Source: an uncultured Bacilli bacterium | GTDB taxonomy: Bacteria > Bacillota_I > Bacilli_A > RF39 > UBA660 | Reading direction: 5' to 3' | DNA: 64,000 nt | Assembly (NCBI GenBank): GCA_944359055.1 | Contig: CALVSO010000003.1 | Coordinates: 4,832 to 68,831, forward strand | Part shown: positions 5,621 to 25,108 of the stretch, piece by piece | Layout: each line of letters starts with the position of its first letter | How positions within the stretch are numbered: the stretch's first letter is position 1 | The notes under the pieces: model-generated | What the model saw: only the letters and a program-made list of their open reading frames with translations | The model's database searches: none | Told to the model about the DNA's origin: nothing | Position numbers and translations under genes: made by a program

Positions 5621-6667
5621 CTATTCATATCCTTGTGTATCTTTTAAGAAATTTAATGAAATATATATTTCAGCTCCATCAGAATCTGTTTCTAGACTAT
5701 CAATATCTTGTCCTTCAATCCAAACATACACTCTTGTTTTTGTTATACCATCTGGTACAGTAAATAATGGTTTTTCAAAATCATCATCAGTCATAGTTTC
5801 TTGTAATTCAAAATAATTTGGGTCAAGATTTGGTGAACCAGATACCGTATTTGCTACAAATATAGGACCACCTGCTCTTGTAAATGCATATGTTGGAAAC
5901 TCTTGTCCATCGATTAAATTAACGCCATATTTAGTAGCCCTTTCAATGGAAAGATTAGAATGCGCCTTACTATTTGGCTCAAAAATAATAGAATAACAAT
6001 TATTATTACATTCAATATTTTGAACTTCATTTGCTGGTGCATCTTTAGCAACAGATCCTAACTTAACAATACCAATACGAGCAGAATTTAATAAACCAAT
6101 CATTTCTTCTTCTGCATCTTTTTCCATTGTAATTGAAGTACCATATTCAAAATATAAATTATCGCTTACTGGAGATCCTGAATCATTTTTAAAAAACAAA
6201 TCAAATGCTATATAATTATTGTACTCATTTCTGCCACCTTCATGCATTAAATTAGTTCTTATATAACCATTATTTTTATCCTTATTTGGATATCTAACCC
6301 CACTACTTGAAAACATATTAAATATCGGACTATCATGATTAGTAATTCCATTTGAAGAAATAGGTACTAATCCACCACCTGCCCATTGACTTGTATTATT
6401 AGGATAAGTATATCTTAATCCTCTTATAAGTTCATCAGCAGATATAATTAAATCAGTATCAAAATTAATACCATCTAAAGAAATAGATAATCCAGTATTT
6501 TTTTTAACTGTCATAGTAAATGTTTTTACTCTAACATTTAAATTGGTTGAAAACCACGCATATGTTGAAAAAATAAGCAAAATACCTACTAATACCATAA
6601 CAGTGATAGTAACTTTTTTATTTGTTTTTTCGATAATTCTTTGTCTAAAAGTATTTTGTTTTTTCAT
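5621..6667 (-). CDS. secreted TasA/camelysin-like protein, paralogue class D (SipW-cognate type signal)
   Basis: N-terminus is a basic stretch, then an h-region, then FSTYAWFSTNLNV (compare TasA GGGTWAAFND). C-terminus TKTRVYVWIEGQDIDS is shared with the other paralogues. Confidence 0.6.
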   Translation of the reverse strand: MKKQNTFRQRIIEKTNKKVTITVMVLVGILLIFSTYAWFSTNLNVRVKTFTMTVKKNTGLSISLDGINFDTDLIISADELIRGLRYTYPNNTSQWAGGGLVPISSNGITNHDSPIFNMFSSSGVRYPNKDKNNGYIRTNLMHEGGRNEYNNYIAFDLFFKNDSGSPVSDNLYFEYGTSITMEKDAEEEMIGLLNSARIGIVKLGSVAKDAPANEVQNIECNNNCYSIIFEPNSKAHSNLSIERATKYGVNLIDGQEFPTYAFTRAGGPIFVANTVSGSPNLDPNYFELQETMTDDDFEKPLFTVPDGITKTRVYVWIEGQDIDSLETDSDGAEIYISLNFLKDTQGYE

Positions 6668-6696
6668 TTTTCACCACCTAATTAATAAAGGAAGAG

Positions 6697-6720
6697 TAAT
6701 TAACCAAATTACTCTTCTTT
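6697..6720 (-). terminator. intra-operon hairpin (AAGAGTAAT-taaccaa-ATTACTCTT) followed by a U-rich tract on the minus transcript, downstream of class B gene 6729-8030
   Basis: Perfect 9-bp inverted repeat seen in the sequence; the minus-strand RNA continues cuuccuuuauuaauu. Confidence 0.35.
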
Positions 6721-6728
6721 ATTATCAA

Positions 6729-8030
6729 TTATTCACCATTTGTTGGAGTAATATCTGTACTTGGTCCATCATAACCTGGAATATCAGATTCATTATATCT
6801 TTCTTTAGTGAATCCAAAATTAACTGTAATTTTCTTTCCTAATGAAGCAAAGTCGTAATTATCGATATCTTGTCCTTCAATCCAAATGTAAACTCTAACT
6901 TTTGTAATACTATTTGGAGCTAATGTCATAAATTGTGGACGATCTTTACCAGCAACATTTTTCATTGTATCAGTAAAGTATGGGAATTCAACTAAGTTAT
7001 ATGTATTTCTAACTCCAGCAACATAAGTTTCATAATCTACTGTGTTTTTTGTATAAGTATTGTAAGCTGCACCATCATAAATATTTACATTATCAGCAAT
7101 TTCAATATTATTACTAATTGCATATGTTGGATAAGCTGTACCATCTTTTACAGCAGTACATTTTGAACCAGCATTATATGAATCTGGATCATTAACATCG
7201 TCACCATCAGTAGAAGCTTTTCTTGTTAAACAAGATTTTTGATACCAATTAATAGCATTTTGTACGTGTTTAGTATCGTTTGGTTCCCAAATTTGAGCAT
7301 CTCTACAAATTCCAGTTACTTGAACTTGGCCATCAGCAGCAGGTACATTAGCACAAGTTATTTTTGTGATATTATCAGCTGAAGTTGTATCTGCTTTAAC
7401 ACGCCCGATTTGTGCGAAAGCAACTCTTACTGAATTTTCAATACCAGCTTTTTCTTTTCCACCATTTGCAGAAACTTTAACTTCTGAATTAGTAGTTAAA
7501 TAAATTGCTTCTTCATTTAATGGATTATTATCAGCATAATAAGCATTTCCTGATAAGTTTTTAATGAACAAGTCAAATGCTACATAACCATTTCCTTCTT
7601 CATATTCAACACCACCAGCATTTAAAGTTGTATGATTATCAACTTGTTCTGATAATAATCTATAACCACCTGTAACAGCAGTTAAACTTCCTTTTTCAAA
7701 TAATTTCATTCTTGATGAAGCTTTATCCATATCACCAACAGATGACATTGGAATTAAACCTTCTCCAGGTTGATCTAACCATTGATTAGCATTTCCTTCA
7801 TAAGGATCAGCATTTCTTGCATCTAATGTATATTTCCAGTTTTCTCCATCCATAGATAAGTATAAACCTTCTGTTGTTGCTATGTTAACACTAAATTCTG
7901 CAACATTAACAGTTTTCATACCAATAAACCATGCATATGTTGAAACTGATAATAAGATTGCACATAAAGAACAAATAGCAACTAAATCTCTAATTCTTTT
8001 ACTTTTTTTACTATTATGTTTTTTTGCCAT
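6729..8030 (-). CDS. secreted TasA/camelysin-like protein, paralogue class B (copy 2)
   Basis: N-terminus ...LCAILLSVSTYAWFIGMKTVNVAEFSV. Conserved core AGIENSVRVAFAQIGRV. C-terminus LAPNSITKVRVYIWIEGQDIDNYDFASLGKKITVNFGFTKE. GGAGG Shine-Dalgarno. Confidence 0.7.
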   Translation of the reverse strand: MAKKHNSKKSKRIRDLVAICSLCAILLSVSTYAWFIGMKTVNVAEFSVNIATTEGLYLSMDGENWKYTLDARNADPYEGNANQWLDQPGEGLIPMSSVGDMDKASSRMKLFEKGSLTAVTGGYRLLSEQVDNHTTLNAGGVEYEEGNGYVAFDLFIKNLSGNAYYADNNPLNEEAIYLTTNSEVKVSANGGKEKAGIENSVRVAFAQIGRVKADTTSADNITKITCANVPAADGQVQVTGICRDAQIWEPNDTKHVQNAINWYQKSCLTRKASTDGDDVNDPDSYNAGSKCTAVKDGTAYPTYAISNNIEIADNVNIYDGAAYNTYTKNTVDYETYVAGVRNTYNLVEFPYFTDTMKNVAGKDRPQFMTLAPNSITKVRVYIWIEGQDIDNYDFASLGKKITVNFGFTKERYNESDIPGYDGPSTDITPTNGE

Positions 8031-8057
8031 AATTTCCTCCTATATTTAAATTTTAGT

Positions 8058-8095
8058 AACCTAGAAGATTAATTAAAATCTTCTAGTTACTTTAA
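8058..8095 (-). terminator. intra-operon imperfect hairpin (AGTAACCTAGAAGAT...ATCTTCTAGTTACT) between the class A and class B genes; possible attenuator or processing/stability element
   Basis: About 14-bp stem with one bulge; only a weak A/U-rich tail follows on the minus transcript. Confidence 0.3.
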
Positions 8096-8098
8096 TAA

Positions 8099-9346
8099 TT
8101 ATTCACCTAATGTTGGTCTCTTATCAACATCACTTGGTAATTCAGGATCACCATCATAGTTGATATCTTCACCATATAATTGTTCTTTAGTAAATCCAAA
8201 TGAAAGTGAGATTTGTCCTCCTAATGAAGCAAAATCATAGTTATCAACGTCTTGTCCTTCAATCCAAATATAAACTCTAATTTTTGTAATACTATTTGGA
8301 GCTAAATAGAATAATTCTGGTCTTTCAGTTCCTTCTAAATTTTTCATTGTATCTGTGAATGTTGGAACTTTCATTAATTTACCTTTTGTAGCAGTCATAG
8401 CAACTGAAGCAGTATAACCATTGTATTCAGTACCATCATATACATCTACTTGATCAGTGTAATTAATTTCACCACTTACTGCATATGTTGGAACAAAAGT
8501 ACCATCAGTAACAGTACCACATGTACCACTAAATGAACTTGGATTAGTAATATCAGCCGCATTTCTCTTTAAGCATGATTTTTCATACCATTTAATAGCA
8601 TTATTTACGTGTTTTGTATCATTTGGTTCCCAAATTGTAGCATCTCTATTTGTACAAATACTAGAAACGCCATCACCACCTGTACAATTAATTCCTTGAA
8701 TTTTTGAAGTATTTTCTTCAGTTGCAACTACACGTCCAATTTGTGCGAAAGCAACTCTTACTGAATTTTCAATACCAGCTGTTTTTTGTCCAGCAGCACC
8801 AGTTTTAACAACTGATTGTGGAGTTAAATAAATTCCTTCTTCATTTTTTATATCAACTGTATCATAATAAGCATTTCCTGATAAGTTTTTAACAAATAAA
8901 TCAAATGCTACATACCCATCAACTTCTTTAGCACCAGTATTTTTTACTCTTGCAGCCATTACACGATAACCACCAGGTGATGCTGTAAAACTTCCTTTTT
9001 CATACATTATAAGTCTTGATGAATCAGTATCGATTTTTCCAACTGTTGACATTGGAATCAATCCTTTGCCACCCCAACTGTTTGTATTAGTCAAATATGT
9101 TCCTTTAACACCAGGATCACTATAATTACTTTCATTAATTGTTACTGTGTCACCGAAATTTTTACCATCTAATGAAAGTGATAAACCATCGATTGCAGCA
9201 ATTTCTACATCGAATGCGGTAACGTTAACAGTTTTCATACCAATAAACCATGCATAGGTTGAAACTGATAAAATAGTAGCACATAAACCAGCTCCAACAA
9301 GCAATCTTTTGACACGTTTTTCATGTCTTCTATTTCTTTTTTCCAT
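8099..9346 (-). CDS. secreted TasA/camelysin-like protein, paralogue class A (copy 2)
   Basis: N-terminus MEKRNRRHEKRVKRLLVGAGLCATILSVSTYAWFIGMKTVNVTAFDVEIAAIDGLSLSLDGKNF. C-terminus ITKIRVYIWIEGQDVDNYDFASLGGQISLSFGFTKE. Confidence 0.7.
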   Translation of the reverse strand: MEKRNRRHEKRVKRLLVGAGLCATILSVSTYAWFIGMKTVNVTAFDVEIAAIDGLSLSLDGKNFGDTVTINESNYSDPGVKGTYLTNTNSWGGKGLIPMSTVGKIDTDSSRLIMYEKGSFTASPGGYRVMAARVKNTGAKEVDGYVAFDLFVKNLSGNAYYDTVDIKNEEGIYLTPQSVVKTGAAGQKTAGIENSVRVAFAQIGRVVATEENTSKIQGINCTGGDGVSSICTNRDATIWEPNDTKHVNNAIKWYEKSCLKRNAADITNPSSFSGTCGTVTDGTFVPTYAVSGEINYTDQVDVYDGTEYNGYTASVAMTATKGKLMKVPTFTDTMKNLEGTERPELFYLAPNSITKIRVYIWIEGQDVDNYDFASLGGQISLSFGFTKEQLYGEDINYDGDPELPSDVDKRPTLGE

Positions 9347-9365
9347 ATGTACCTCTCTCTTTTCA

Positions 9366-10061
9366 TTAATTTTCTACGTACTCTGAATTGAAATCCATAT
9401 AAACAGAGAATTCTCCACCTAAAATATCATCTGTACATTCAGGATCACTACCTTCAACCCAAATGACAATTGTGTATTTATCGATATCTCCAGGTTTAAA
9501 ATCATCAACTTTATTACGAGCAACTAATTTTTCTTCTTCAAATGGAATAGTATCTGGCTCATTTCTTCCGTCAGAAGCTTTCTTAGCATACGTAACAGGT
9601 TGTCCATTTCGATAGACTCTAATTCTTACAGCACCGTCAATTTTTTTGATAACATCTGTGATAAAAAGTTCACTCCAATAGCTTGTAATTTCATCTCCAA
9701 CATTCTCAACAAAAAATGTATAAGCAAGGTATTCAGAACCATTATGAGAACCACCAGTAGAATCATCTAAATTATCAGGTAACCAATTACCAGATATATT
9801 AGTGAATGTTTTAGGCGAAGCAACTGATAATTCTGCTTGATACACTTTATAATTAGGATCATCGTAAATGATAATACCTCTACTAAAGTATAAATTTTTA
9901 TCCAGTGTTATACTAAAATTACCACTATTATAAATAATACCTATAACTAAATACAAAAGAATAAATAGGAAAAGAAATATTAATAAAGCTATTCTAAAGA
10001 TATTTTTAAGTTTTCTTTCATTTTTGATTTTCTTTGAACTAAGCTTAATCTTATCTTCCAT
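9366..10061 (-). CDS. membrane-anchored protein sharing the C-terminal WxEGxD domain, paralogue class C (copy 2)
   Basis: A basic N-terminus of about 20 aa, then a single TM helix, then NSGNFSITLDKNLYF...IIIYDD. C-terminus KYTIVIWVEGSDPECTDDILGGEFSVYMDFN. It is 231 aa, versus 230 aa for the copy at 19159-19851. Confidence 0.6.
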   Translation of the reverse strand: MEDKIKLSSKKIKNERKLKNIFRIALLIFLFLFILLYLVIGIIYNSGNFSITLDKNLYFSRGIIIYDDPNYKVYQAELSVASPKTFTNISGNWLPDNLDDSTGGSHNGSEYLAYTFFVENVGDEITSYWSELFITDVIKKIDGAVRIRVYRNGQPVTYAKKASDGRNEPDTIPFEEEKLVARNKVDDFKPGDIDKYTIVIWVEGSDPECTDDILGGEFSVYMDFNSEYVEN

Positions 10062-10126
10062 AACTCTACCCCTTCATATTACCCTATAAACTAGGGTCAC
10101 TATGATATTCTTTACAATACAATATA

Positions 10127-10154
10127 ATTATAACATACATATTTTTTTTGTCAA
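10127..10154 (-). promoter_or_regulatory. near-consensus sigma-A promoter for cassette 2 (TTGACA-16-TGTTATAAT, extended -10)
   Basis: Reverse strand reads TTGACAaaaaaaatatgtatgtTATAAT. About 47 bp, including the -10 and the leader, is conserved with 19874-19920. Confidence 0.55.
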
Positions 10155-10161
10155 TATAATA

Positions 10162-10178
10162 TGTCGATAATTGTCGAA
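10162..10178 (+). promoter_or_regulatory. tandem Spo0A-box-like motifs TGTCGAT (10162-10168) and TGTCGAA (10172-10178) in the divergent promoter region
   Basis: Exact 7-mer match to the Spo0A 0A box TGTCGAA, with a 6/7 copy 10 bp upstream. They sit upstream of the -35 for the minus-strand cassette and about 190 bp upstream of the plus-strand gene. Confidence 0.4.
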
Positions 10179-10363
10179 TTTAATTTTACTTTGTTTTTCT
10201 TTAGTTTACAATACTTTTTGTCAATCTTTTACATTATTTGAATATATTTATTAAATATTTTACACATATTGACACATATAAAATCATATTTTACATTTTT
10301 TTATTGATTTTATACATATATATATGTATAATAAAGATGTAAAAGAAGAAAGAAGGGTTTTAA

Positions 10364-10975
10364 ATGGCAATGAAATTTAAAATATTGTTAGTTATTAGTT
10401 CTTTGGCATTGACATTAAGTTTGATGAGTAATACTTATTCAAGATATGTTGCTGATGTTGATAGCAATATTGATTTGTTATTTGCTAAGTGGCAAATTTT
10501 AGTTAATGAAAATGATATTACCAATAATACTACAACTTCTATCAATATTACTCCAGTAATGGAAGAAAATGTTAACGTTGCTGAAAACACCGTTGCTCCT
10601 TCTTCTAAAGGTTATTTTGATATTGACATTGATCCATCTAATGCTGGTGTATCATTTGATTATTCAATCAACTTAAATATTGAAGATGAAAATATGCCTG
10701 ATTTAATGATTAGTAAATATGCAGTTTTAGATAAGGATTATAATGAAGGTGATCAAATAACTACAACCACTATTTTAAATAATACAATAGATGGAACTGT
10801 TGATTATAATGCTACAGCACATGAACCATTTACAGTAAGAGTTTTCTTTGAATGGTATGAAGGTGTTGATGAAAAAATGGATGATGAAGCTGATACAAAT
10901 ATAGGTTATGAAGCAGCTTTAAATGATAAATCATTATTAGTAAATGCGTCAATTAGTTTCAATCAAAAAATTTAA
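10364..10975 (+). CDS. small secreted protein of the same family (signal-like N-terminus ...LMSNTYSRYV; C-terminal FFEWYEGVDE motif)
   Basis: N-terminal hydrophobic signal; C-terminal motif VRVFFEWYEGVDE resembles the WIEGQD strand of the paralogues. Putative promoter TTGATT-17-TATAAT at 10304-10332. A hairpin terminator follows. Confidence 0.5.
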   Translation: MAMKFKILLVISSLALTLSLMSNTYSRYVADVDSNIDLLFAKWQILVNENDITNNTTTSINITPVMEENVNVAENTVAPSSKGYFDIDIDPSNAGVSFDYSINLNIEDENMPDLMISKYAVLDKDYNEGDQITTTTILNNTIDGTVDYNATAHEPFTVRVFFEWYEGVDEKMDDEADTNIGYEAALNDKSLLVNASISFNQKI

Positions 10976-11033
10976 GAGATTAAAAAATCTCTTTTTTTTA
11001 TACATAAAAAAACACAATTTTATTGTGTTTTAT
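10975..11033. terminator. two adjacent hairpin terminators (AGAGATT-aaaaa-AATCTCT plus T-run; AAACACAAT-ttt-ATTGTGTTT) separating convergent genes
   Basis: Inverted repeats with flanking A and T runs are seen directly in the sequence. Confidence 0.6.
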
Positions 11034-11563
11034 TCTTCTACATCTACTTCATCACCATATTTAATTTCAACTATTAATGCATATAATTCATAAATAAAGA
11101 TTAAGAAACATGGTACTAATACGATAAATAAGAAGCCCCATTGTGATTCAATAATTCCTAAAACATTTCCAATATCATTATATACTTTAGTAGGTCTACC
11201 AATCAAATATTTAATTGAATATGTTTCACCATTTTCAAATGTAAGATAATCATCCATAACTTCTCCAACTTTGCCAATATTTATATCAGCAGTTTTAGAC
11301 ATCTTATCAACTTTATAAACAAATACTTCTTCACCTTTTTGTAAATTTTCTGGCGCTGCTGCTTCAACTAAAACTAAATCACCTTTTTGATATTCTTCAT
11401 GACTTACTTTATCTTTTAAAATTACTAATGAAGTTTCACCAAATACTGTTACTCGATAATCATTGAAATTTAATAATAAAATTGTCATAAATAATGCAAA
11501 AGTAAAATAAACAATTCCCAATGTTACTAATAATACTTTTTTTATTTTTTTTAAAACTTTCAT
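11030..11563 (-). CDS. divergent SipW-like signal peptidase I paralogue (possibly catalytically degenerate)
   Basis: N-terminal TM anchor. YQKGDLVLVE...APENLQKGEEVFVY aligns with SipW NTGDLILVK...NPDDLQKGDIITF. The SGSM and THR catalytic motifs are not clearly conserved. Confidence 0.45.
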   Translation of the reverse strand: MKVLKKIKKVLLVTLGIVYFTFALFMTILLLNFNDYRVTVFGETSLVILKDKVSHEEYQKGDLVLVEAAAPENLQKGEEVFVYKVDKMSKTADINIGKVGEVMDDYLTFENGETYSIKYLIGRPTKVYNDIGNVLGIIESQWGFLFIVLVPCFLIFIYELYALIVEIKYGDEVDVEE

Positions 11564-11572
11564 ACTTCCTCC

Positions 11573-12430
11573 TTAATTACATTCTATTTCTAATAAAGAA
11601 AATTCATTTACATTATAAGTAGCATCTTTATCTACTTTATAAAATATATAACTTAAATTATCTTTACTAGGTATTTCTAAAATTATTTCATTAATATAAC
11701 CATTTGACATATTATAATTTGTTATATTTTCGTTATCAATTCTTAATTTATTAGCATCCCAATTTATTTTAACACATTTTTTAGTGTCAGAAGAATTAGT
11801 TACTGTTAATCGATCATAATTAGAAAATGATTGATATAACATATCTGTTTTTTCTACTAAGTTTTTATCTTTTTTAAGAATAAATGTTCCAGTTAATATC
11901 TTCTCATATGGTTCAGTAGTAACAACTTCAATATTAGCAGTTACATTATCATTTTCTACATCAAAATATATATCTGAAGTAGCTTTTTGAATAACCCAAT
12001 CATAACCTTTTACTTCACAAGTTGCTTTATCAAAATCAGTTGTATCTACACCATCATTTGTATTATTTACACAACTATTATAACTAGATAATGTCCCATA
12101 ATAAACATTCGAATCAGTTCCATTGACTTTACAATTACTACCATCATCTAATGTACAAGTTACTTTATATTTTATATCATAATCAGTAACTAAAGCATCG
12201 TTAATATTATTTTTTAAATTAAAATGAATACTTGTTCCATCCCAAACATTATTAACATTTTTAACGTTATTTCCTAGTTGATCACTACTTAAATAAAATC
12301 CTTGAGAATTTAAATAATAATTCCAAACTGTATTAGATACATATTTTGCTAATGTAAAACCATTTGTAATAAGTAAAATTGTACCTAAAAATATAACAAT
12401 CATTATTAAATATTTGCGCATTTTAATCAC
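11573..12430 (-). CDS. secreted protein with a SipW-type-like signal (ITNGFTLAKYVSN)
   Basis: Basic N-terminus plus h-region, then N/T-rich mature part. Same operon as the TasA-like and SipW-like genes. Confidence 0.45.
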   Translation of the reverse strand: MIKMRKYLIMIVIFLGTILLITNGFTLAKYVSNTVWNYYLNSQGFYLSSDQLGNNVKNVNNVWDGTSIHFNLKNNINDALVTDYDIKYKVTCTLDDGSNCKVNGTDSNVYYGTLSSYNSCVNNTNDGVDTTDFDKATCEVKGYDWVIQKATSDIYFDVENDNVTANIEVVTTEPYEKILTGTFILKKDKNLVEKTDMLYQSFSNYDRLTVTNSSDTKKCVKINWDANKLRIDNENITNYNMSNGYINEIILEIPSKDNLSYIFYKVDKDATYNVNEFSLLEIECN

Positions 12431-12959
12431 CTAACTTCTGCCAACTATTTATTTCTACATCAATGAAATCAGCTAAATTTGTATATTCTAATGAATTATA
12501 TTCACTAGGGAATGTTACTTTTAATTTATAATTATCTAATATTTCATTTGTATGTTCTAGTGTTTGAATTGAAGAATTACATACTAATTCATTTTTTTCA
12601 TTTCTTGAGTAAGTTTCATCACATTTCATTATTAATTCTTCTGTTTCCCCTACTTTATATAATTCAATATCTAATGGCATAAAATGAAATGTTTTAATAG
12701 TAATTTGATATTCAACTGTTACATTACTTAATTCATTATCTTTATTAGTAACTGAAAATAAGTATTCTTCATTACTACCAGGATTTAAATTACTTAGATT
12801 TAATTCTAAATGATTCAATTGTTTACTTTCAAATACAAATTTAGCGATTTTTTGATCTACTTTTACATTACTGTTAGAATTAAACATTGAATATGTAACA
12901 CCAGTACCTAAAAATATAGTTATTAAAATAAACAAAATTATTAATACTTTATGTTTCAT
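12423..12959 (-). CDS. TasA/camelysin family protein (peptidase M73-like fold)
   Basis: GVTYSMFNSNSNVKVDQKIAKFVFESKQLNHLELNLSNLNPGSNEEYLFSVTN aligns with B. subtilis TasA GGGTWAAFNDIKSKDATFASGTLDLSAKENSASVNLSNLKPGDKLTKDFQFEN. Confidence 0.75.
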   Translation of the reverse strand: MKHKVLIILFILITIFLGTGVTYSMFNSNSNVKVDQKIAKFVFESKQLNHLELNLSNLNPGSNEEYLFSVTNKDNELSNVTVEYQITIKTFHFMPLDIELYKVGETEELIMKCDETYSRNEKNELVCNSSIQTLEHTNEILDNYKLKVTFPSEYNSLEYTNLADFIDVEINSWQKLGD

Positions 12960-12968
12960 GATTTCCTC

Positions 12969-15900
12969 CTATCTAACAATAAATTTCTTTTCGATTGTTC
13001 CTATTTTAGTTGTACCATCATATAATTCAAATACAAATTTGTAACCACCTAACATATTTTTAAGTTCTAATTTGTTAGGTAATTCATAAATATTATCAGT
13101 TATTTTGTTTAATTTTGTAGTAGTATAATTACTTAAATCAACTAATGAATAATCTTGATTATAAGCTGATAAAACTTGTTTCTTATATAATGAAACTCTT
13201 ACAGTTGGATTAGTAAAATTACCAGTTTTAATTATGTCAAAATCAATTATATTGTCTGTTATAACATTATTAAATGATACATCAAATCCATAATCAATTG
13301 TAACATTGTTAGTTACAGTTACTGGAACAGTTATTTCATTACTATATGAATTAGCATATTTTCCATCATAAGATGCAAGTGCTTTTATTTTAAAGTAATA
13401 AGTGCCTGTTTCTAATTTGCTATTATCAACTGAAGTAGTTATTTCTAAATTACCAATAGCAGGTATTCTAACTATACCATCATTATTTGGTGAGTATTCT
13501 TTTCCATTTACTTTAAATGTTAAATTTTTTAAATATTCTTTATTTACTATATTTCCATTTTTATCAACTAAACTAACATTTAATCCCATTATTTTATCTT
13601 CATATGTTGTATCATTTATTTGTTTATCATTTATAAAATCATATACTAAATTACTTGTAATATCAATTGTATTAGTAGAATCACTATTATAAATAATTGT
13701 ATCACTATAATTAGAACTAATATTTATACTAGCACTACTTTCATAAATATTAAATGGTTTTAAAGTAGTTGTTAAAGTTTTAATTACACTATCTTGATTG
13801 TTTAATTCCATAGCTATTTTAATATCTTCAATATCAGTTATATCAGTGTTTTTAAAATCTAAAACAATAGTAAAATTCTCATTTATTTGATTTGTATAAT
13901 TATCTTCACTAAATAAAGTATCACTACCTACTTCTTTAAATAAAGTTAAATTATAAATTGTATCTTGTTTGTCAACTGTATATGTATATACTTTATTTTG
14001 GTTGTTATCAATTAAAGTTATTTTTGTATTAAGTGGTAAGGAAGTATTAGATACAATACTATGTGTTTTTCCTTCGTTATAATTATAACTTGATTGATAA
14101 CTTACATTTAAAGTAATAGATGATTTATTTGTTATATAATTTGTAGTAAAGTTATTATTTCTACCAGCATTTAAACTATTAATACTATAACCATCAAATA
14201 TTATATATTCACTATTAACATAAGTAATATAATCAGCATTATCAATTACTTTAACATATAAAATATAAGTACCTTTATTATTAATCGTTATTTTATCATT
14301 ATAAGCATTCCAACTAACACTATCTAATTTATCTTCATTTATTATTTCATTAGATAAATAATATTCTACACTTTTAATACCAGATAAATTATCAATAGCA
14401 GTTATTGTTAAATCGGTATTTTCATTTATATAATTTTTAATAGTTGGATTATTTAATTTATTCCAAGTCTTATCATTCATATTAATAGTAACATCAGAAC
14501 CAGATAAATCCACTATAATTAAATCAGAATTTAAATAATAGATATTATCATTATTATCGACTACTTTAGCATATATAACATATTTACCTTCATTATTTAA
14601 TTCAACTATATTTTCATAATTACTAAAAGTTAAATTTTGTATTTCTTCTTTTGTTAATTCTTTATCACTAATATAATAACTAACTTCTTTAAATGGTCTT
14701 AATGGATCAATTTGTTCGATACTAAAAGCAGTTGCTTTATTAAACTTAATTGAATTTAATTCGTATCCTAAATTGTTCCATGAATATGTTCCCACATGAA
14801 TATTAGCAATTGGATTATTTATATCATCAGTAGCTAATATAGGAAAACTTCCTTCTTCATAAACCCAAACATTTTCTGCGTTACTAGTTAAATCAGTACT
14901 ATCAATAAATTCATTAAATTGTAAATTATTAATAACAAATTCTTTATCTTTTAAATTATTAATATCTGTTAAAGTAACAGTTCCAAATATACTTCCTTCA
15001 TTGGTTATTTCACCATCAGTATAATAAGAATTTTTAAAATTAACAACACTACTTACAATAGAATTTACTAAATATGTTGTTTCTGTTGCAAAAGAATTAT
15101 TAATAGTTAAATTACCATTTGTAACATTATTAATTAAATGAGTAACATTACCTGTACTATAAACTTTATTTAGTGTTCCTTTACCATGAAGTTTATTAAT
15201 TAATCCAGATGTTTTATCACCTGATAATGTTCCGTTATTATATGATTTATTAATTGTAATATCATTAGTATATCCTACTAAACCAACACTATTTTTACCT
15301 ATAATATTAGCTTTATTAATAACATTATTTAAAGTAATTTTATCAGCCTTAGCAACTATTCCACTACTAATACCATAATTATAAGTTACATCATAAGTTA
15401 AATTATCTAATGTTATATTAGTATCTATAACTATTTTACTAATATTTCCTAAATCGAGACTGAAATCACCAGTTACTTCATTATTATTAATTTTTATTTT
15501 ATTTTCACCAATGCTACCTTTAATTGTAACATTAATTATATCACCTTTTATATAAGGAATCATTATATTAGAAAAATTAGATATTGTAGGAACATTAAAT
15601 GTTTCTGTTTTAGTTAATTCTTCATTTGTACCAACAACATAACCATTATATAAAACATTAGTTATATTACAATTAGTAGCACTAGAAGCAATTCCTGCAG
15701 TAATATTACCACCATAAATCATAGAATTTTCAACATACAAATTACTTACATTACCACTTAAATTAGTAAATAAACCAACTTCTTCATTTTCACTAGAAAT
15801 ATATAAACCATATATTCTAAAATAATTACCATCTAAATTACCCTTAAAATTATTTAATGATTCAAATAAATTAATAGATTTTATTTTAGTGCCAGTTTTA

Positions 15901-16298
15901 TCTACATTATCATATATTTCATTAGTATTTTCTTTTACATAAAAGGTTGTATTATTTAATTTATATTTAATACCTTCTTCATCATAACTAAATATACCAT
16001 CATTTAAAACAATATCCTTATTTAACTCAAAATATGTATCAGCATAATCAGTAGTTTTTAACATTTGCGCAAAATAAGCTAATTCATTACCATTAGAAAT
16101 AATATAAGGATCATCAATTGTACCACTACCACTTCGATAACTAGTAGCTACATTACCATCCCAAACTTCAATATCTTTAATAGTATTTCTATTTTTATAT
16201 CTTGCCAAACTAGGTATCATAATTGAACAAATCAATATTAAGCCTAAAATTAAAATTAAATAATTTTGCTTAGGTATTTTTTTCAATAAATCTTTCAT
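12969..16298 (-). CDS. large N/T-rich secreted surface protein: SipW-like signal, parallel beta-helix N-cap motif, tandem Ig-like repeats
   Basis: Signal ...IMIPSLARYKNRNT. DPYIISNGNELAYFAQMLKTTDYADTYFELNKDIVL resembles the cap of right-handed beta-helix adhesin or pectate-lyase-like domains. There are two repeats of about 95 aa (GKYVIYAKVVDNNDNIYYLNSDLIIVD and GTYILYVKVIDNADYITYVNSEYIIFD). No LPXTG motif. Confidence 0.6.
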   Translation of the reverse strand: MKDLLKKIPKQNYLILILGLILICSIMIPSLARYKNRNTIKDIEVWDGNVATSYRSGSGTIDDPYIISNGNELAYFAQMLKTTDYADTYFELNKDIVLNDGIFSYDEEGIKYKLNNTTFYVKENTNEIYDNVDKTGTKIKSINLFESLNNFKGNLDGNYFRIYGLYISSENEEVGLFTNLSGNVSNLYVENSMIYGGNITAGIASSATNCNITNVLYNGYVVGTNEELTKTETFNVPTISNFSNIMIPYIKGDIINVTIKGSIGENKIKINNNEVTGDFSLDLGNISKIVIDTNITLDNLTYDVTYNYGISSGIVAKADKITLNNVINKANIIGKNSVGLVGYTNDITINKSYNNGTLSGDKTSGLINKLHGKGTLNKVYSTGNVTHLINNVTNGNLTINNSFATETTYLVNSIVSSVVNFKNSYYTDGEITNEGSIFGTVTLTDINNLKDKEFVINNLQFNEFIDSTDLTSNAENVWVYEEGSFPILATDDINNPIANIHVGTYSWNNLGYELNSIKFNKATAFSIEQIDPLRPFKEVSYYISDKELTKEEIQNLTFSNYENIVELNNEGKYVIYAKVVDNNDNIYYLNSDLIIVDLSGSDVTINMNDKTWNKLNNPTIKNYINENTDLTITAIDNLSGIKSVEYYLSNEIINEDKLDSVSWNAYNDKITINNKGTYILYVKVIDNADYITYVNSEYIIFDGYSINSLNAGRNNNFTTNYITNKSSITLNVSYQSSYNYNEGKTHSIVSNTSLPLNTKITLIDNNQNKVYTYTVDKQDTIYNLTLFKEVGSDTLFSEDNYTNQINENFTIVLDFKNTDITDIEDIKIAMELNNQDSVIKTLTTTLKPFNIYESSASINISSNYSDTIIYNSDSTNTIDITSNLVYDFINDKQINDTTYEDKIMGLNVSLVDKNGNIVNKEYLKNLTFKVNGKEYSPNNDGIVRIPAIGNLEITTSVDNSKLETGTYYFKIKALASYDGKYANSYSNEITVPVTVTNNVTIDYGFDVSFNNVITDNIIDFDIIKTGNFTNPTVRVSLYKKQVLSAYNQDYSLVDLSNYTTTKLNKITDNIYELPNKLELKNMLGGYKFVFELYDGTTKIGTIEKKFIVR

Positions 16299-16350
16299 AA
16301 ATATCTTCCTTTACCACTTATTTATTCTTTAACTTTTCTACCTTATATCA

Positions 16351-16379
16351 ATTATAACATAATTCGACATCTTTTGCAC
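16351..16379 (-). promoter_or_regulatory. promoter for the large-protein operon: extended -10 TGTTATAAT, weak -35 (GTGCAA), Spo0A 0A box TGTCGAA (16363-16369) in the spacer/-35 region
   Basis: Reverse strand reads GTGCAAaagaTGTCGAAttatgtTATAAT. The arrangement resembles Spo0A-activated sigma-A promoters, which have poor -35 elements. Confidence 0.45.
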
Positions 16380-16385
16380 CTATTT

Positions 16386-16415
16386 TCAAAAAAAATATCA
16401 CACAAATTGTGTGAT
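16386..16415. terminator. bidirectional intrinsic terminator (ATATCACACAA-at-TTGTGTGATAT, flanked by A8 and T4)
   Basis: Perfect 11-bp inverted repeat downstream of the class B1 gene. Confidence 0.6.
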
Positions 16416-16423
16416 ATTTTAAA

Positions 16424-17740
16424 TTATTCATTTGTTGTTGGAACATCTGGTCCATCATAATCAGGGAAATCTGATTGATTGTATCTTTCTTTAGTGAATC
16501 CAAAGTTAATAGTAATTTTCTTTCCTAAAGATGCGAAATCATAGTTATCAATATCTTGTCCTTCAATCCATACATAAACTCTTAATTTAGTAATACTATT
16601 TGGAGCTAAAGTCATAAATTGTGGACGATCTTTACCTTCAACATTTTTCATTGTATCAGTAAAGTATGGGAATTCAATTAATTTCATTGCACCTTTTTGT
16701 CCTGGTTGTGTTCCTTCTGCAGCAGCATTGTATTCTGCTAATGTATTAGTATTAGCTGTATATTTATTATAAGCAGTACCATCATAAATATTAACATTAT
16801 CATCAATTCCAATTGTTCTACTAATAGCATATGTTGGATAAGCAGTTGTTTTATTTAATGTTTTACATGGTGTAGCATCAGTATAAGATGCGCTTGAATT
16901 AACATCTGCACCAGTTCTTTCTAAACATGATTCATTATACCAATTAATAGCATTTTGTACGTGTTTAGTATCATTTGGTTCCCAAATTTGAGCATCTCTA
17001 CAAATACCTGTAACATGTTCTGGATCTTCTGCATCATCTAAACTATCAGCACAAGTCATACTTGTTACTAATTTTTGATTTTCTGTTACATCTGTATCTA
17101 AAGCAGCACTTACACGACCTAATTGAACAAATCCAACTCTTACAGAATTTTCAATACCAGCTTTACCTTCACCATCTAAAGCAACTGTAACAGCTGAATT
17201 AGTATTTAAATAAATTGCTTCTTCATTTTTGACATTATTTTCTGGATAATAAGGATTTCCTGATAAGTTCTTAACAAATAAGTCAAATGCAATATAACCA
17301 TCACCTTCAACATATTCTTTTGAACTAGTTGATCCACCTACTTGTTTAGTATGGTTGTCAACTCGACTAGATAACAATCTATAACCACCTGTAACAGCAG
17401 TTAAACTTCCTTTTTCATATAACTTCATTCTTGATGAAGTTGCATCCATTTCACCAATTGAAGACATTGGAATTAAACCTTGTTTAGGTTGATCTAACCA
17501 TTGATTTGCATTTCCATCATAAGCTGGTGCATTTTTTGCATCTAATGTATATGACCAATCCTTACCATTCATTGATAAGAATAAGCCTTCGGTTGTTGCA
17601 ATATTAATGTCGAATTCTGTTACATTAACAGTTTTCATACCTATAAACCATGCATAAGTTGAAACTGATAATAAAATAGCACATAAAGCACAAAGAGTAA
17701 TCAGATTTCTTACTTTTTGATTTTTCTTTCTTCTTTTCAT
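16424..17740 (-). CDS. secreted TasA/camelysin-like protein, paralogue class B (copy 1)
   Basis: N-terminus MKRRKKNQKVRNLITLCALCAILLSVSTYAWFIGMKTVNVTEFDINIATTEGL. C-terminus ITKLRVYVWIEGQDIDNYDFASLGKKITINFGFTKE. A 49/50-nt tract is identical with copy 2 (16952-17001 versus 7261-7310). Confidence 0.7.
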   Translation of the reverse strand: MKRRKKNQKVRNLITLCALCAILLSVSTYAWFIGMKTVNVTEFDINIATTEGLFLSMNGKDWSYTLDAKNAPAYDGNANQWLDQPKQGLIPMSSIGEMDATSSRMKLYEKGSLTAVTGGYRLLSSRVDNHTKQVGGSTSSKEYVEGDGYIAFDLFVKNLSGNPYYPENNVKNEEAIYLNTNSAVTVALDGEGKAGIENSVRVGFVQLGRVSAALDTDVTENQKLVTSMTCADSLDDAEDPEHVTGICRDAQIWEPNDTKHVQNAINWYNESCLERTGADVNSSASYTDATPCKTLNKTTAYPTYAISRTIGIDDNVNIYDGTAYNKYTANTNTLAEYNAAAEGTQPGQKGAMKLIEFPYFTDTMKNVEGKDRPQFMTLAPNSITKLRVYVWIEGQDIDNYDFASLGKKITINFGFTKERYNQSDFPDYDGPDVPTTNE

Positions 17741-17750
17741 TTTATACCTC

Positions 17751-19169
17751 CTAATTTATTGTCCATATATCATCTACTCGCGTAGCTGTTTTTTTAACTC
17801 CACCATCTTTGAATGTAAATTTAGTCATCCAACTTGGTAAAGTAAATTCCTTTTTGTCATTATCATAAGTAATTTTTGAATTTGAAATATCAGTTATTTC
17901 ACCAGTATTAACATAAGATACTGTTTGGTCTCTAACTACATCATCTGGTAATTCTGGATCACCATCATAATCGATATCTTCTCCATAGAATCTTTCTTTA
18001 GTAAATCCAAATGATACAGAGATCTTTCTTCCTAACGAAGCAAAATCATAGTTGTCTATATCTTGTCCTTCTATATAAATATAGATTCTTACCTTAGTAA
18101 TACTATTTGGAGCAAGTGTTATAAAATCAGGTCTATTAACTCCTTCATTAAACTTATCAGTATCAGTAAAGTAATCTACTTTGTATAGTTTACCTTTTTG
18201 ATATGAATTTGCTATTGATTTAGTATAGCCATTATATTCTTTACCATCATACACATCAATTTGATCTGTATAATCAATAACTCCACTTACTGCATAAGTT
18301 GGATAATAAATTCCATCTTTAATAGTTTTACAAGGTCCACTAAATGAAGCAGGATTAGTTATATCACTGCCAATTCTTTTACGACATGATGTTGTATACC
18401 AACTAATAGCATTAGTAACATGTTTAGTGTCATTAGGTTCCCAAATTTGAGCGTCCCTATCAGCACATATACCAGTAACATCATCATCAGATTTACAAGT
18501 AATGCCTGTAATAACATCAACATCGTCTTCTACTGCTATAACACGTCCGATTTGTGCGAAAGCTACTCTTACAGAATTTTCAATACCAGCTTTTATTTCT
18601 CCATCTTCAGCAACTTTTACTTCTGATTCTGGATCTAAATAAATTGCTTCTTCGTTTTTTGGATTTAATTCTTTATAGTATGCATGTCCTGATTTATTTT
18701 TAATAAATAAATCAAATGCTACATATCCATCAACTTCTTTAGCGCCAGTATTTTCTACTATTGCAGCCATCACACGATAACCACCAGGTGATGCTGTAAA
18801 ACTTCCTTTTTCATACATTATAAGTCTTGATGAGCCAGTATCAATCTTACCAACTGATGAAACAGGAACTAATCCTTTGCCACCCCAACTGTTAGTGTTT
18901 CCAGGATAACTTACAGTTTTATGATTTTCTTCATTAATCGTTACTGTTGTTTCCCAATTCTTACCATCTAACGATAATAATAAACTATCAATAGCAGCAA
19001 TAGAAACATCAAAACTAGAAACATTAACAACCTTCATACCAATAAACCATGCATAAGTTGAAACGGTTAGAATAATCGTACATAAAACAGCAGCAACAAG
19101 TAATTTTTTTACTCTTGTTTCATGTTTTTTCTTACGTCTTTTCATAATCCCTTCTTTCTTATTCTGCAT
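17751..19169 (-). CDS. secreted TasA/camelysin-like protein, paralogue class A (copy 1) with a 55 aa C-terminal extension; the real start is probably the second Met (about 19145)
   Basis: ...LLVAAVLCTIILTVSTYAWFIGMKVVNVSSFDVSIAAIDSL. The other paralogues begin at the basic MKRRKK segment, and GAAGGGA precedes that internal ATG. Confidence 0.7.
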   Translation of the reverse strand: MQNKKEGIMKRRKKKHETRVKKLLVAAVLCTIILTVSTYAWFIGMKVVNVSSFDVSIAAIDSLLLSLDGKNWETTVTINEENHKTVSYPGNTNSWGGKGLVPVSSVGKIDTGSSRLIMYEKGSFTASPGGYRVMAAIVENTGAKEVDGYVAFDLFIKNKSGHAYYKELNPKNEEAIYLDPESEVKVAEDGEIKAGIENSVRVAFAQIGRVIAVEDDVDVITGITCKSDDDVTGICADRDAQIWEPNDTKHVTNAISWYTTSCRKRIGSDITNPASFSGPCKTIKDGIYYPTYAVSGVIDYTDQIDVYDGKEYNGYTKSIANSYQKGKLYKVDYFTDTDKFNEGVNRPDFITLAPNSITKVRIYIYIEGQDIDNYDFASLGRKISVSFGFTKERFYGEDIDYDGDPELPDDVVRDQTVSYVNTGEITDISNSKITYDNDKKEFTLPSWMTKFTFKDGGVKKTATRVDDIWTIN

Positions 19170-19851
19170 CTATTGGCTTAAAATTCATACGAACTTTAAA
19201 TTCACCACCTAAAATATTATCAGTACAATCAGGATCTTCGCCTTCAATCCATAAAACTATTGTATACTTGTCAATATCGTTAGGTTTAAAATTAGTAACA
19301 TCTTCACTCATGATTATTTTATTATCAATAAATGGAACTGTATTTGGTTCTACTTCTCCTTCACTTGATAATTTTGCATAAGTTTGATATTCTCTATTCT
19401 TATAAATTCTAACTCTGATGGCAGCATCAACATTCTTGATAACATCATCGATAATAACCTCTCTAGTATAACCAGCAACTTCATCTCCAGTATTTTCAAT
19501 ATAAAATGTATATACTAAATAACTATCGCCATTATGTGATCCACCTTCGTAATCTTTGATTTCTTCCGGTAACCATATTTCCTTAATACTATTAAAAGTT
19601 TCAGGAGCTTTAGCTAATAATTCTGTACGATATACTTTATATTGAAAATCATCATAAATAATTATGCCATTATCCAAATAAAGATTTTTATCGAGTGTTA
19701 TGCTAAAATTACCATTATTATAAACAATACCCATTACAAAATATAAAATAAGTAAAAGTAAAAGTAATAATATCACAACTAGTTTAAATCTTTTCTTAAG
19801 TTTTTTTTCTTTTTTTAATTTATCGGTAGTTTTAGTAAATTTACTTTCCAT
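19159..19851 (-). CDS. membrane-anchored WxEGxD-domain protein, paralogue class C (copy 1)
   Basis: 230 aa; MESKFTKTTDKLKKEKKLKK, then a TM helix, then NNGNFSITLDKNLYLDNGIIIYDD. C-terminus KYTIVLWIEGEDPDCTDNILGGEFKVRMNF. Confidence 0.6.
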   Translation of the reverse strand: MESKFTKTTDKLKKEKKLKKRFKLVVILLLLLLLILYFVMGIVYNNGNFSITLDKNLYLDNGIIIYDDFQYKVYRTELLAKAPETFNSIKEIWLPEEIKDYEGGSHNGDSYLVYTFYIENTGDEVAGYTREVIIDDVIKNVDAAIRVRIYKNREYQTYAKLSSEGEVEPNTVPFIDNKIIMSEDVTNFKPNDIDKYTIVLWIEGEDPDCTDNILGGEFKVRMNFKPIDAE

Positions 19852-19904
19852 CTTTTACCTACACCCCTTTTTGTACACTACGATATCCTTTACAATACAA
19901 TATA

Positions 19905-19956
19905 ATTATAACATACTTACTTTTTTTGTCAATATTAATTGTCAATGATTGTCGAA
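19905..19956 (-). promoter_or_regulatory. near-consensus sigma-A promoter for cassette 1 (TTGACA-16-TGTTATAAT; -10 at 19905-19910, -35 at 19927-19932) with upstream TGTCAAT, TGTCGAA (19950-19956) and TGTCAT repeats
   Basis: Reverse strand reads atgacatttttCGACAAtcaTTGACAAttaataTTGACAaaaaaagtaagtatgtTATAAT. A perfect 0A-box 7-mer is present, and the leader is conserved with cassette 2. Confidence 0.5.
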
Positions 19957-20025
19957 AAATGTCATATATGTTATTTAGCAATAAAAAAAGTCAAATGTTA
20001 TAATTTGACAATTATTCTTTATTAA

Positions 20026-20790
20026 TTAAGAACCTAATAAAGATAAAATCATATTAATATCTATGTGACTAAAATAAATAATTAAGGCTGCCATACTTAG
20101 AAAAGGTCCATATGGTATTTCGTGATTTTTATTTGTTTTCATTATAAATACTGATACAGGCAAAGCGATAAAAGCTGACAAAAATATAGTAATAATTGAT
20201 AATTCCCAGCCAATTATTAAACCAAAAACAGCCATTAATTTAATATCTCCACCGCCCATAGATTCTCTTTTAAAAATAAAATCGCCAAATAATTTTAGTA
20301 ATAACATAATTATAAAAGATATCAAAGCACTTAATAGTGAATTTAACAAAACATCTAATCCGTTAATAAAATATATTTCAATCATTAATAAAATACTAAA
20401 AACAATTAAAACACTATCTTCAATAATCATATAATAATAATCACTTAAAATAACTATTATCAATAAAGATGTAAATGTTAAAGCAATTATTAAATCAAAT
20501 GAAATACCAAATGATAAATAGCAAATTACAAATAATAAACCACAAATTATTTCAGATATTGGATAAAATATTGATATTTTATCTTTACAATTAACACACT
20601 TACCTTTTTGTAATATATAAGATAAAATAGGTATTAATTCTAAAGGTTTTAATTTATGATTACATTTTGGACAATGGCTACCCGGATATAAAATTGATTC
20701 TCCTTTAGGTAATCTATAAGCCACAACATTATAGAAGGAACCAAAAATGGTTCCTAGTATAAACAACCCTATTATAATACTTAATTCCAT
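20026..20790 (-). CDS. pilD: prepilin peptidase (A24 family, PilD/ComC-like)
   Basis: N-terminal CPKC...CVNC zinc-binding tetrad, catalytic GGGDIKL motif, multiple TM helices. Confidence 0.8.
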   Translation of the reverse strand: MELSIIIGLFILGTIFGSFYNVVAYRLPKGESILYPGSHCPKCNHKLKPLELIPILSYILQKGKCVNCKDKISIFYPISEIICGLLFVICYLSFGISFDLIIALTFTSLLIIVILSDYYYMIIEDSVLIVFSILLMIEIYFINGLDVLLNSLLSALISFIIMLLLKLFGDFIFKRESMGGGDIKLMAVFGLIIGWELSIITIFLSAFIALPVSVFIMKTNKNHEIPYGPFLSMAALIIYFSHIDINMILSLLGS

Positions 20791-20800
20791 AAAATCCCCC

Positions 20801-22741: not shown

Positions 22742-22859
22742 ATAGTATCACCACGCATTCCCTTTTGCTATTCTTAATACTAACATGATTATACCATATT
22801 TTTCTAAAAAGTAAAACTTTTTTTAAAAATTCATATAATATTTTTGAAAGGAGGAAATT

Positions 22860-23201: not shown

Positions 23202-23213
23202 AAAAAGCCATTT

Positions 23214-25037: not shown

Positions 25038-25108
25038 TCAACTGTGTAATTATAGCATTTTTATTTTAATTTGTAAAGGTTTTTGATATAATTATAATAG
25101 GTGGTAGA

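Follow-up and report, generated by a model that had tools for sequence, protein, structure and literature searches.

Duplicated operons for putative secreted subunits and probable same-class gene conversion in an uncultured gut member of the Bacilli

The 64,000-nucleotide stretch of DNA analyzed here (hereafter the window; contig CALVSO010000003.1) is chromosomal DNA from a gut bacterium of the Bacilli, uncultured and very rich in AT, that belongs to the type represented by metagenome-assembled genomes (MAGs) labeled as Mollicutes or Tenericutes. It encompasses two copies of a three-gene cassette, C-A-B, in which C encodes a putative membrane-anchored protein whereas A and B encode two classes of related subunits. 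We consider it likely that these are old duplicated operons in which short patches are occasionally copied between genes of the same class, that the near-identical tracts previously noticed in them result from constraint, and that the encoded proteins are secreted subunits processed by a SipW-type signal peptidase.

The Duplicated Cassettes and Their Relatives

All genes but one between 5.6 and 19.96 kb of the window are encoded on the minus strand. Cassette 1 occupies positions 19851-16424 and cassette 2 occupies positions 10061-6729, with an additional gene, D, trailing the latter. The respective open reading frames (ORFs) are as follows:

19159..19851, minus strand: C1, 230 aa; putative base subunit anchored in the membrane; beta-rich domain preceded by a single N-terminal transmembrane helix
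17751..19169, minus strand: A1, 472 aa; class A subunit, extended by ~55 aa at the C-terminus; donor of the A2 tract (18732-18831)
16424..17740, minus strand: B1, 438 aa; class B subunit; around 16667-16673, donor type for the junction in B2
9366..10061, minus strand: C2, 231 aa; paralog of C1
8099..9346, minus strand: A2, 415 aa; class A subunit; conversion recipient
6729..8030, minus strand: B2, 433 aa; class B subunit
5621..6667, minus strand: D, 348 aa; fifth, shorter and distant A/B paralog, 32% identical

The gene content of the duplicated cassette reported in a first-pass annotation of this DNA is borne out by these ORFs, with C2 being 231 aa long; D was absent from that gene list. A, B, and D have in common the end of the signal peptide, STYAWF, and the C-terminal motif VYVWIEGQDID. 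At the protein level, A1 and A2, as well as B1 and B2, are about 70% identical (also given as 69%), compared to 54-58% between A and B and 53% between C1 and C2; the DNA identity between same-class paralogs is 75-79%. The GC content is 29-31% within the cassettes vs. 21-23% nearby, and the codon bias is strong.

The relatives identified by genome search are uncultured gut Bacilli, Tenericutes or Mollicutes, all represented by MAGs, and given that the genome collection contains one genome per species, each of them forms its own GTDB species cluster. Four relatives are 95.6-96.1% identical to the window across 9-18 kb of synteny, and for a sister species, the identity drops to 79-86%. All four A/B genes have separate orthologs in the sister species: the identity of B2 is 0.846 to the sister-species B2 and 0.778 to B1, and that of A2 is 0.856 to the sister-species A2 and 0.750 to A1. 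Because this orthology is preserved for each gene, the duplication predates the split of the two species and no wholesale homogenization has occurred; judging by these comparisons, we regard the cassette duplication as old.

Among the related loci, A and B are, as a rule, adjacent (40 AB loci, 4 ABAB and 2 ABABAB), and the comparison of copy number across relatives proposed in the first-pass annotation yields 1-3 A-B pairs per locus. In other lineages, the copies within a genome share 71-89% identity, compared to the lower value of 69% in the window, and D-like ORFs trail B in many relatives. Two loci (L019 and L020) contain three tandem A-B pairs, the copy number also varies in L007, L008, L015, and L023, and in some genomes the A-B pairs are directly tandem, without an intervening C gene.

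A Patch of A1 Origin in A2

The main evidence of exchange comes from the following segment:

8921..9020 (outer bounds 8894-9022), minus strand: conversion tract in A2, A1-derived, 100-129 bp

This segment of A2 is identical to A1 of the window (18732-18831) at 96 of 100 positions, and to A1 of one relative at 98 of 100, but only 71-77% identical to the five other A2 alleles, those of the sister species and the four relatives. Like A1, it contains an extra codon, and it alters about 10 residues, so that SSRLIM...AARVKNTGAKEVDG is found in place of SSNLIL...ASQVENDTTEQDG. In a triplet test similar to 3SEQ, a run of 27 informative sites is of the A1 type at 26 positions, between flanks of the A2 type (maximum descent 25; permutation p ≤ 5e-5), and in 144 systematic tests, the signal is robust against each of the four relatives. 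When A1 is treated as the recipient, the same test gives no signal (p = 0.48), which implies a non-reciprocal transfer; in the tract region, the identity of A1 to its counterparts in a relative and in the sister species is 95-99%. Among the 15 alleles listed for the 90% identity cluster that includes the window's A2, 12 carry the A2-type tract and only that of the window is of the A1 type, the remaining two being unmatched by the motif search. The A1 patch is also missing from seven A2-type database clusters. The protein clusters of the window's A2, B2, and B1 have 28-32 listed members each, and the collection contains no exact match to its A1.

An assembly chimera between repeats could in principle mimic such a mosaic, given that all the relatives of the window are MAGs and that the paralogs contain identical stretches of ~50 nt inside the tract. 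However, the exact 415-aa allele of A2 was assembled on 10 contigs, with at least seven samples and two independent studies represented, which excludes a chimera; furthermore, the patch has four mismatches to A1 of the same genome in 100 positions and is bounded by A2-specific sequence on both sides. We consider the probability of this explanation negligible. Thus, the segment is closer to the paralog than to its own alleles, lies between recipient-type flanks with clustered informative sites, leaves the donor unchanged and is not an assembly artifact. On this pattern of alleles, we interpret A2 8921-9020 as a gene conversion patch copied from A1.

The B2 Junction and Other Signals of Exchange

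A second, shorter candidate is located in B2:

6953..6991, minus strand: B1-type junction in B2, GAA TTC CCA with the loss of 8 codons (24-bp deletion)

B2 of the window and of two relatives contains this junction exactly as it is in B1, whereas B2 of the two other relatives retains GAT ATG ACT TAT...GGG, and both B2 and B1 of the sister species retain the GAT ATG ACT TAT start (...GG(G/A)) along with the eight extra codons. The triplet test gives p = 2e-4 with the indel left uncounted, and the two forms of the junction are split 7 to 7 among the alleles listed. The 3' boundary of the tract is not resolvable because the flank is conserved. The junction is best interpreted as a short conversion tract with a B1-type donor. 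In addition, a quartet analysis shows that 10 of 11 consecutive informative sites, in codon columns 92-105, group the B paralogs by genome rather than by orthology. Comparison with relatives therefore reveals strain-polymorphic patches at A2 8921-9020 and at the B2 junction, and the exchange among paralogs that had been suggested for this locus holds with respect to A1 to A2 and B1 to B2, albeit in tracts other than those originally cited.

The alleles could, alternatively, owe their mosaic structure mainly to DNA imported from other strains, with the patches produced elsewhere or by ectopic pairing of the imported DNA. Indeed, the B2 alleles of relatives with ~96% identity (L001-L005) differ at 136 aligned sites, with indel columns counted, and these differences fall in blocks that match no paralog (e.g., codon columns 195-236 of L003), which suggests that strains have exchanged alleles in other events as well; such blocks also distinguish the A2 alleles of close relatives. 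The A2 patch is slightly closer to A1 of the relative than to A1 of the same genome, as indicated by the counts above, and the window encodes PilC and PilD proteins similar to those of type IV pilus (T4P) and competence systems. Nevertheless, the two extra differences per 100 nt are compatible with later drift, and by any route, with an A1-type donor and A2 as the recipient, the information passes from paralog to paralog. We assign a small but real probability to import as the main source of the mosaics.

Exchange between the classes, i.e., conversion of A and B genes by each other, had also been suggested. Several triplets with cross-class parents give low uncorrected p-values (0.004-0.05): B2 with the sister-species B2 and A2 as parents (p = 0.014) or with A1 (0.046), and A1 with B1 (0.004). 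However, none of these signals survives correction over the ~15-144 tests, and the tract cited in support of cross-class conversion is retained in all orthologs. The strongest signals with paralogs as parents, e.g., B2 with B1 and A1 (p = 1.5e-4), were judged to reflect lineage-specific acceleration of B1 or A1, which is common to the sister species, rather than conversion. Accordingly, cross-class exchange is not borne out, and we consider it unlikely.

It is also conceivable that the locus is a system of programmed antigenic variation, in which one cassette serves as a high-frequency donor library for the other. The proteins are paralogous and probably surface-exposed, the tracts are located in variable regions, and the copy number ranges from 1 to 3, all of which would be compatible with such a system. 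However, there are no silent or truncated copies, with both cassettes containing intact ORFs and promoters that match the consensus in 12 of 12 positions; orthology is retained over ~15% DNA divergence; the A2 patch is present in just one of the 15 alleles listed; and no G4 motif, invertase or similar element was seen near the cassettes, in a search that was not exhaustive. Programmed variation thus appears quite unlikely.

Near-Identical Tracts Shared by the A and B Genes

Two near-identical tracts were originally cited as signs of gene conversion or recombination among the paralogs:

7405..7449, minus strand: tract 1, encoding AGIENSVRVAFAQIG; invariant protein core, not a conversion tract
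7261..7310, minus strand: tract 2, encoding ICRDAQIWEPNDTKHVQ; conserved core

Both tracts exist, but with corrected positions: the 44/45 match is between 7405-7449 (not 7416-7459) and 8736-8780, and the partner of the 49/50 match is 16956-17005, not 16952-17001. What they fail to provide is evidence of recombination. Under saturation, identical residues in the four A/B genes are expected to share codons at a frequency of 0.62-0.63, compared to 0.66-0.77 observed. In a within-genome test of silent-site runs similar to GENECONV, the longest stretches of identical codons fail to reach significance in every pair of genes (permutation p 0.06-0.70); this test also missed the real A2 tract (p = 0.06). 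As anticipated under a mosaic structure, the identity along the alignment is uneven, ranging from 0.4 to 0.96 in 30-codon windows, but this unevenness mostly tracks protein conservation.

In the core of tract 1, AGIENSVRVAFAQIGRV, the nucleotides encoding the first nine residues, AGIENSVRV, are nearly identical in 15 of 15 orthologs and paralogs from two species. The residues of this core are invariant in 161 members of the family, whereas its synonymous codon homozygosity, 0.649, is no different from the mean for conserved columns, 0.648. This combination of invariant residues with average synonymous homozygosity indicates that tract 1 is explained by constraint at the protein level, one of the two alternatives that had been offered to recombination; constraint at the RNA level, the other one, is not indicated by these values and was rejected. 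With respect to tract 2, B1 and B2 of the window retain a core that has diverged in the sister species, and no conversion is required.

The near-identical tracts common to all four genes thus consist of invariant core residues encoded by strongly biased codons. Extended to the entire locus, this observation would imply that there is no recombination at all and that amino acid constraint, together with codon bias, accounts for every high-identity tract left from an old duplication. This is true of both cited tracts and of the within-genome data taken alone, and is supported by the average synonymous conservation of the core across the family and its retention in all orthologs. However, such constraint cannot explain a segment of A2 that is 96-98% identical to A1 but only 71-77% to its own alleles, with the accompanying residue changes and extra codon, nor a B1-type deletion junction that is present only in some B2 alleles. 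Therefore, we regard the absence of recombination as very unlikely and favor occasional same-class conversion. A more general implication is that, in a genome with 23% GC, near-identical tracts in paralogs are not by themselves evidence of recombination because codon bias alone matches 62-63% of the codons for identical residues, and conversion becomes provable only through the alleles of relatives.

The Promoter and Leader Module

Each cassette is preceded by a copy of a promoter/leader repeat:

19876..19956, minus strand: promoter/leader repeat of cassette 1; -35 TTGACA at 19932-19927, TG-extended -10 TATAAT at 19910-19905
10098..10178, minus strand: promoter/leader repeat of cassette 2; -35 at 10154-10149, -10 at 10132-10127

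The repeat is 81 nt long and 89% identical between the cassettes, which confirms the duplication of the leader and extends it beyond the ~47 bp originally reported. It adjoins C1 and C2 coding sequences with only 68% DNA identity. In the 15-kb region, there are only two 12/12 matches to the promoter TTGACA-16-TGnTATAAT, one per cassette, and each operon is driven by its own consensus promoter of the sigma-70 type. Directly upstream of the -35 elements, there are TTCGACA(A/T) direct repeats with a spacing of ~10-11 nt (10127-10178 and 19905-19956 in the window; also loci L002-L070), and downstream, the conserved leader motif, TATTGTATTGTAAAGGATATC in cassette 1. The same arrangement of TTCGACA repeats, consensus promoter and TATTGTATT(G/A)TAAAG(G/A)ATATC is found upstream of the C genes in ~20 other genomes, where the encoded proteins are just 60-65% identical, and the transcript-start motif TATTGTATTRTAAAGRATATC is retained across distant species. 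This recurrence of the leader motifs in distant species indicates that the duplicated leader is maintained by function: it is a conserved regulatory module and not a mark of recent exchange, and its preservation by conversion was accordingly rejected.

A riboswitch or another structured leader was also considered and rejected, given that the Rfam search of the window identified two tRNAs only, with no family matching the leader, and that the leaders fold no better than shuffled sequences (z -0.35 and -1.5). An OmpR/PhoB family response regulator (26924-27589) and a histidine kinase are encoded at 25680-27589 and are candidate regulators of the cassette promoters.

Nature of the Encoded Proteins and Their Processing

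The A/B and C families are large and entirely unannotated. The A/B proteins show no match to Pfam, even at E ≤ 10, or to NCBIfam, and a sequence search of PDB returned noise only (Staphylococcus G5-E repeat, E 0.01-0.09). An A/B profile retrieves 1755 clusters at 50% identity and more than 3600 at 90%, none with a Pfam domain or a name; likewise, all 1506 matches of the C family are without annotation or Pfam domain. The longer A/B family members contain C-terminal InlB B-repeat, Ig-like, DUF6273 or glycine-rich modules that are typical of exposed bacterial proteins. The C-terminal extension of A1 (17751-17920, ~55 aa, ending with …VSYVNTGEITDISNSKITYDNDKKEFTLPSWMTKFTFKDGGVKKTATRVDDIWTIN) is not present in A2, B1, or B2. 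The C-terminus of the family seems to be a display point, given the larger adhesin-like C-terminal modules of other members.

In the AlphaFold2 (AF2) model of B2 (predicted local distance difference test score, pLDDT, 79; predicted template modeling score, pTM, 0.80), an N-terminal transmembrane helix is followed by a mostly beta body, with a disordered linker (residues 29-38) at the proposed cut site. The model of C2 (mean pLDDT 67) consists of a transmembrane helix and a beta-sandwich-like domain. The last third of C, the C-terminal 90 columns, aligns weakly with A/B (hhalign E 3e-4, probability 39%).

Two ORFs of the locus are related to signal peptidases:

1731..3767, minus strand: SipW/ER-type signal peptidase I, N-terminal domain of a 678-aa protein; Pfam Peptidase_S24, E 2e-5
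11030..11563, minus strand: SipW-like membrane protein, 177 aa; TIGR02228, E 1.9e-4, under the curated cutoff; without the GSM serine motif

The translation of the 678-aa protein contains the motifs TGSM...PGD...THRV...KGDAN, making it the candidate processing enzyme of the locus. The same protein also has a transmembrane segment and a lysine/glutamate-rich extension of ~500 aa without a family match. The 177-aa protein, which lacks the serine motif that is present in the 678-aa ORF, was rejected as the active SipW of the locus and is possibly a degenerate, inactive paralog. The gene of the SipW-type peptidase is flanked by two large ORFs in the orientation of the locus, 3864-5474 and 189-1727 (both minus strand), which encode lysine-rich proteins of 536 and 512 aa, respectively, without a family match.

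By eye, the ends of the hydrophobic helices of A, B, and D, STYA/WF, resemble that of TasA, GTWA/AF (the slash marks the proposed or known end of the signal peptide); the TasA chain in the filament structure (8aur) begins at precursor residue 28, after T-W-A, and the TasA query sequence was verified against 8aur and 5of1. The locus thus combines a SipW-type peptidase with putative substrates that have a TasA-like signal peptide end. A class III signal peptide (G/F-x-x-x-E), the hallmark by which type IV pilins were sought, was found in none of A, B, C, and D.

A Proposed Scheme for the Locus

The allele comparisons show that short, non-reciprocal conversion occasionally copies a patch into the same-class gene of the other cassette, the events being A1 to A2 and B1 to B2 (24-bp deletion junction), and that mosaic alleles of this origin are segregating among members of the natural population. 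With respect to the proteins, we propose that A, B, and D are secreted subunits whose signal peptide, ending with S-T-Y-A/W-F, would be removed by the local SipW-type peptidase, after which the exposed N-terminal beta-strand and the beta-sandwich body might allow the adjacently encoded A and B to co-assemble into an extracellular fiber or matrix; C, which is smaller but related and has a single transmembrane helix, may anchor this structure in the membrane. By analogy with the sipW-linked systems discussed below, A and B are probably secreted fiber or matrix subunits. The converted patches lie in variable, indel-rich parts of the proteins, and conversion is therefore expected to change exposed loops; from this, we infer that antigenic variation of a surface fiber, as originally suggested, might result.

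A more specific version, which we put forward only tentatively and consider rather doubtful, is that A-D constitute an undescribed family of secreted subunits in which SipW-processed A and B form a heteropolymeric fiber or lattice, anchored by C, with loops diversified by conversion and copy number variation. The family behind this version comprises at least 1755 clusters at 50% identity and is mainly confined to uncultured AT-rich gut Bacilli.

Several observations count against this scheme. With respect to conversion, the B2 tract is supported by five substitutions and one indel; the A1 patch is seen in only one class of A2 alleles, which implies a low exchange rate; uptake of a foreign A1 followed by ectopic recombination would yield the same pattern as intragenomic conversion; and the relatives, with ~96% local identity, belong to separate species clusters, so that the "population" is actually a species complex. 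With respect to the proteins, Foldseek comparison of the B2 model with PDB detects nothing below E 1, and that of the C2 model detects weak, generic beta-sandwich matches only; the NCBIfam model for SipW-cognate signals is silent on the proteins of the locus; and no sequence or fold relationship to TasA or to another filament of known structure was detected, there being no Pfam match and an hhalign probability of 0.2% for a 40-sequence profile against TasA.

Other Features of the Locus

The intergenic regions of cassette 2 and the region between the cassettes contain the following features:

8031..8098, minus strand: A2-B2 intergenic stem-loop; 15 base pairs, minimum free energy (MFE) -16.2 kcal/mol, z -3.6
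6668..6728, minus strand: B2-D intergenic hairpin, terminator-like; MFE -16.7 kcal/mol, z -4.1
10364..16298, genes between the cassettes: proteins of 203 aa (plus strand), 285 aa, 178 aa, and 1109 aa, from translations

None of 200 shuffled sequences folds as well as the A2-B2 stem-loop, which has no counterpart in cassette 1, where the gap between A1 and B1 is 10 nt. The stem-loops of cassette 2, as opposed to the short A1-B1 gap, suggest that the two cassettes differ in stoichiometry or in how their transcripts are processed.

The N-termini of the 203-, 285-, 178-, and 1109-aa proteins have in common a hydrophobic helix followed by the motif (T/L)(Y/A)(S/A)-x-(F/Y), and these proteins likely contribute to the secreted structure of A/B as accessory or minor components. 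They match no Pfam or NCBIfam family except for a single match to an OmpL47-type/Ig-like domain in the 1109-aa protein (E 4e-8, under the curated cutoff).

On the other side of cassette 1, a 5.1-kb block (19965-25080) encodes a prepilin peptidase, a PilC/GspF-like protein, a 113-aa ORF, and BipA/TypA:

20026-20790: prepilin peptidase (PilD), adjoining cassette 1
20801-22741: PilC/GspF-like protein with a 240-aa N-terminal extension

In two relatives (L009, 7134-7758; L017, 7112-7733), the block is missing between cassette 1 and a nuclease gene, and the cassette 1 promoter adjoins a homolog of window positions 25082-25678 instead of PilD/PilC. The block is a local rearrangement or insertion, and its absence beside cassette 1 in these relatives weakens the case for a functional tie of the cassettes to PilD/PilC.

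Comparison with Known Systems

Conversion between expressed paralogous genes for outer surface proteins is known for babA/babB and sabA/sabB of Helicobacter pylori and for opa of Neisseria. The window resembles these systems in the short non-reciprocal tracts, the separately promoted paralogs at distant sites and the strain-polymorphic mosaics; however, the protein family and the phylum differ, the events are few and span ~40-130 bp, and no phenotypic switch is known. In the silent-cassette systems of antigenic variation, i.e., pilE/pilS of Neisseria, MgPa/MgPar of Mycoplasma genitalium, and vlsE of Borrelia, segmental conversion likewise diversifies exposed parts of surface proteins. Unlike these systems, both copies in the window are full-length and have consensus promoters, with no truncated donor array and no sign of high-frequency switching.

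For SipW-processed subunits that assemble outside the cell, the analogy is based on the sipW-tasA and sipW-bsaAB systems (PMC11580942; PMC9674648). In the biofilm fiber operons sipW-tasA-tapA of Bacillus subtilis and sipW-bsaA-bsaB-bsaC of Clostridium perfringens, as in the window, a SipW/ER-type peptidase is encoded in the locus, and the paralogous subunit genes adjoin each other. The hydrophobic N-terminal helix of the putative substrates in the window ends, similarly to TasA (...GTWA/AFND), with T-aromatic-A/S, x-F, and then a beta-strand. In C. perfringens, BsaA is reported to form membrane-associated oligomers, and secretion of BsaA and BsaC is T4P-associated (PMC11580942); T4P genes are also located near the cassettes of the window, although the adjacency of PilC/PilD is not preserved in relatives. 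In contrast to TasA, the A/B proteins are about twice as large and show no detectable homology, and TasA is not among the Foldseek matches; furthermore, unlike the sipW-tasA and bsa loci, the window encodes a dedicated protein, C, that contains a transmembrane helix, and the whole operon is duplicated.

Beta-sandwich subunits, as in the models for the window, are also characteristic of the archaeal donor-strand-complemented filaments of the TasA superfamily, such as CanA cannulae of Pyrodictium and threads of Sulfolobus. CanA (9dlo and 9hdi) and the Saci_0406 thread (7pnb) are among the weak Foldseek matches of the B2 and C2 models, but with E from above 0.01 to above 1 and TM-scores of ~0.3 on the target, these are not evidence of homology.

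In summary, conversion between expressed paralogs for surface proteins is a known phenomenon, whereas the protein family and the SipW-linked locus described here are not. Strain-polymorphic conversion between two expressed operons points to a route of variation of a probable major surface structure in an uncultured gut lineage, and the link of these large, strongly promoted and unannotated families to a SipW-type peptidase provides a testable handle on its cell surface. Should the A and B proteins form a fiber or lattice, it would be a new major surface structure of this poorly known lineage.

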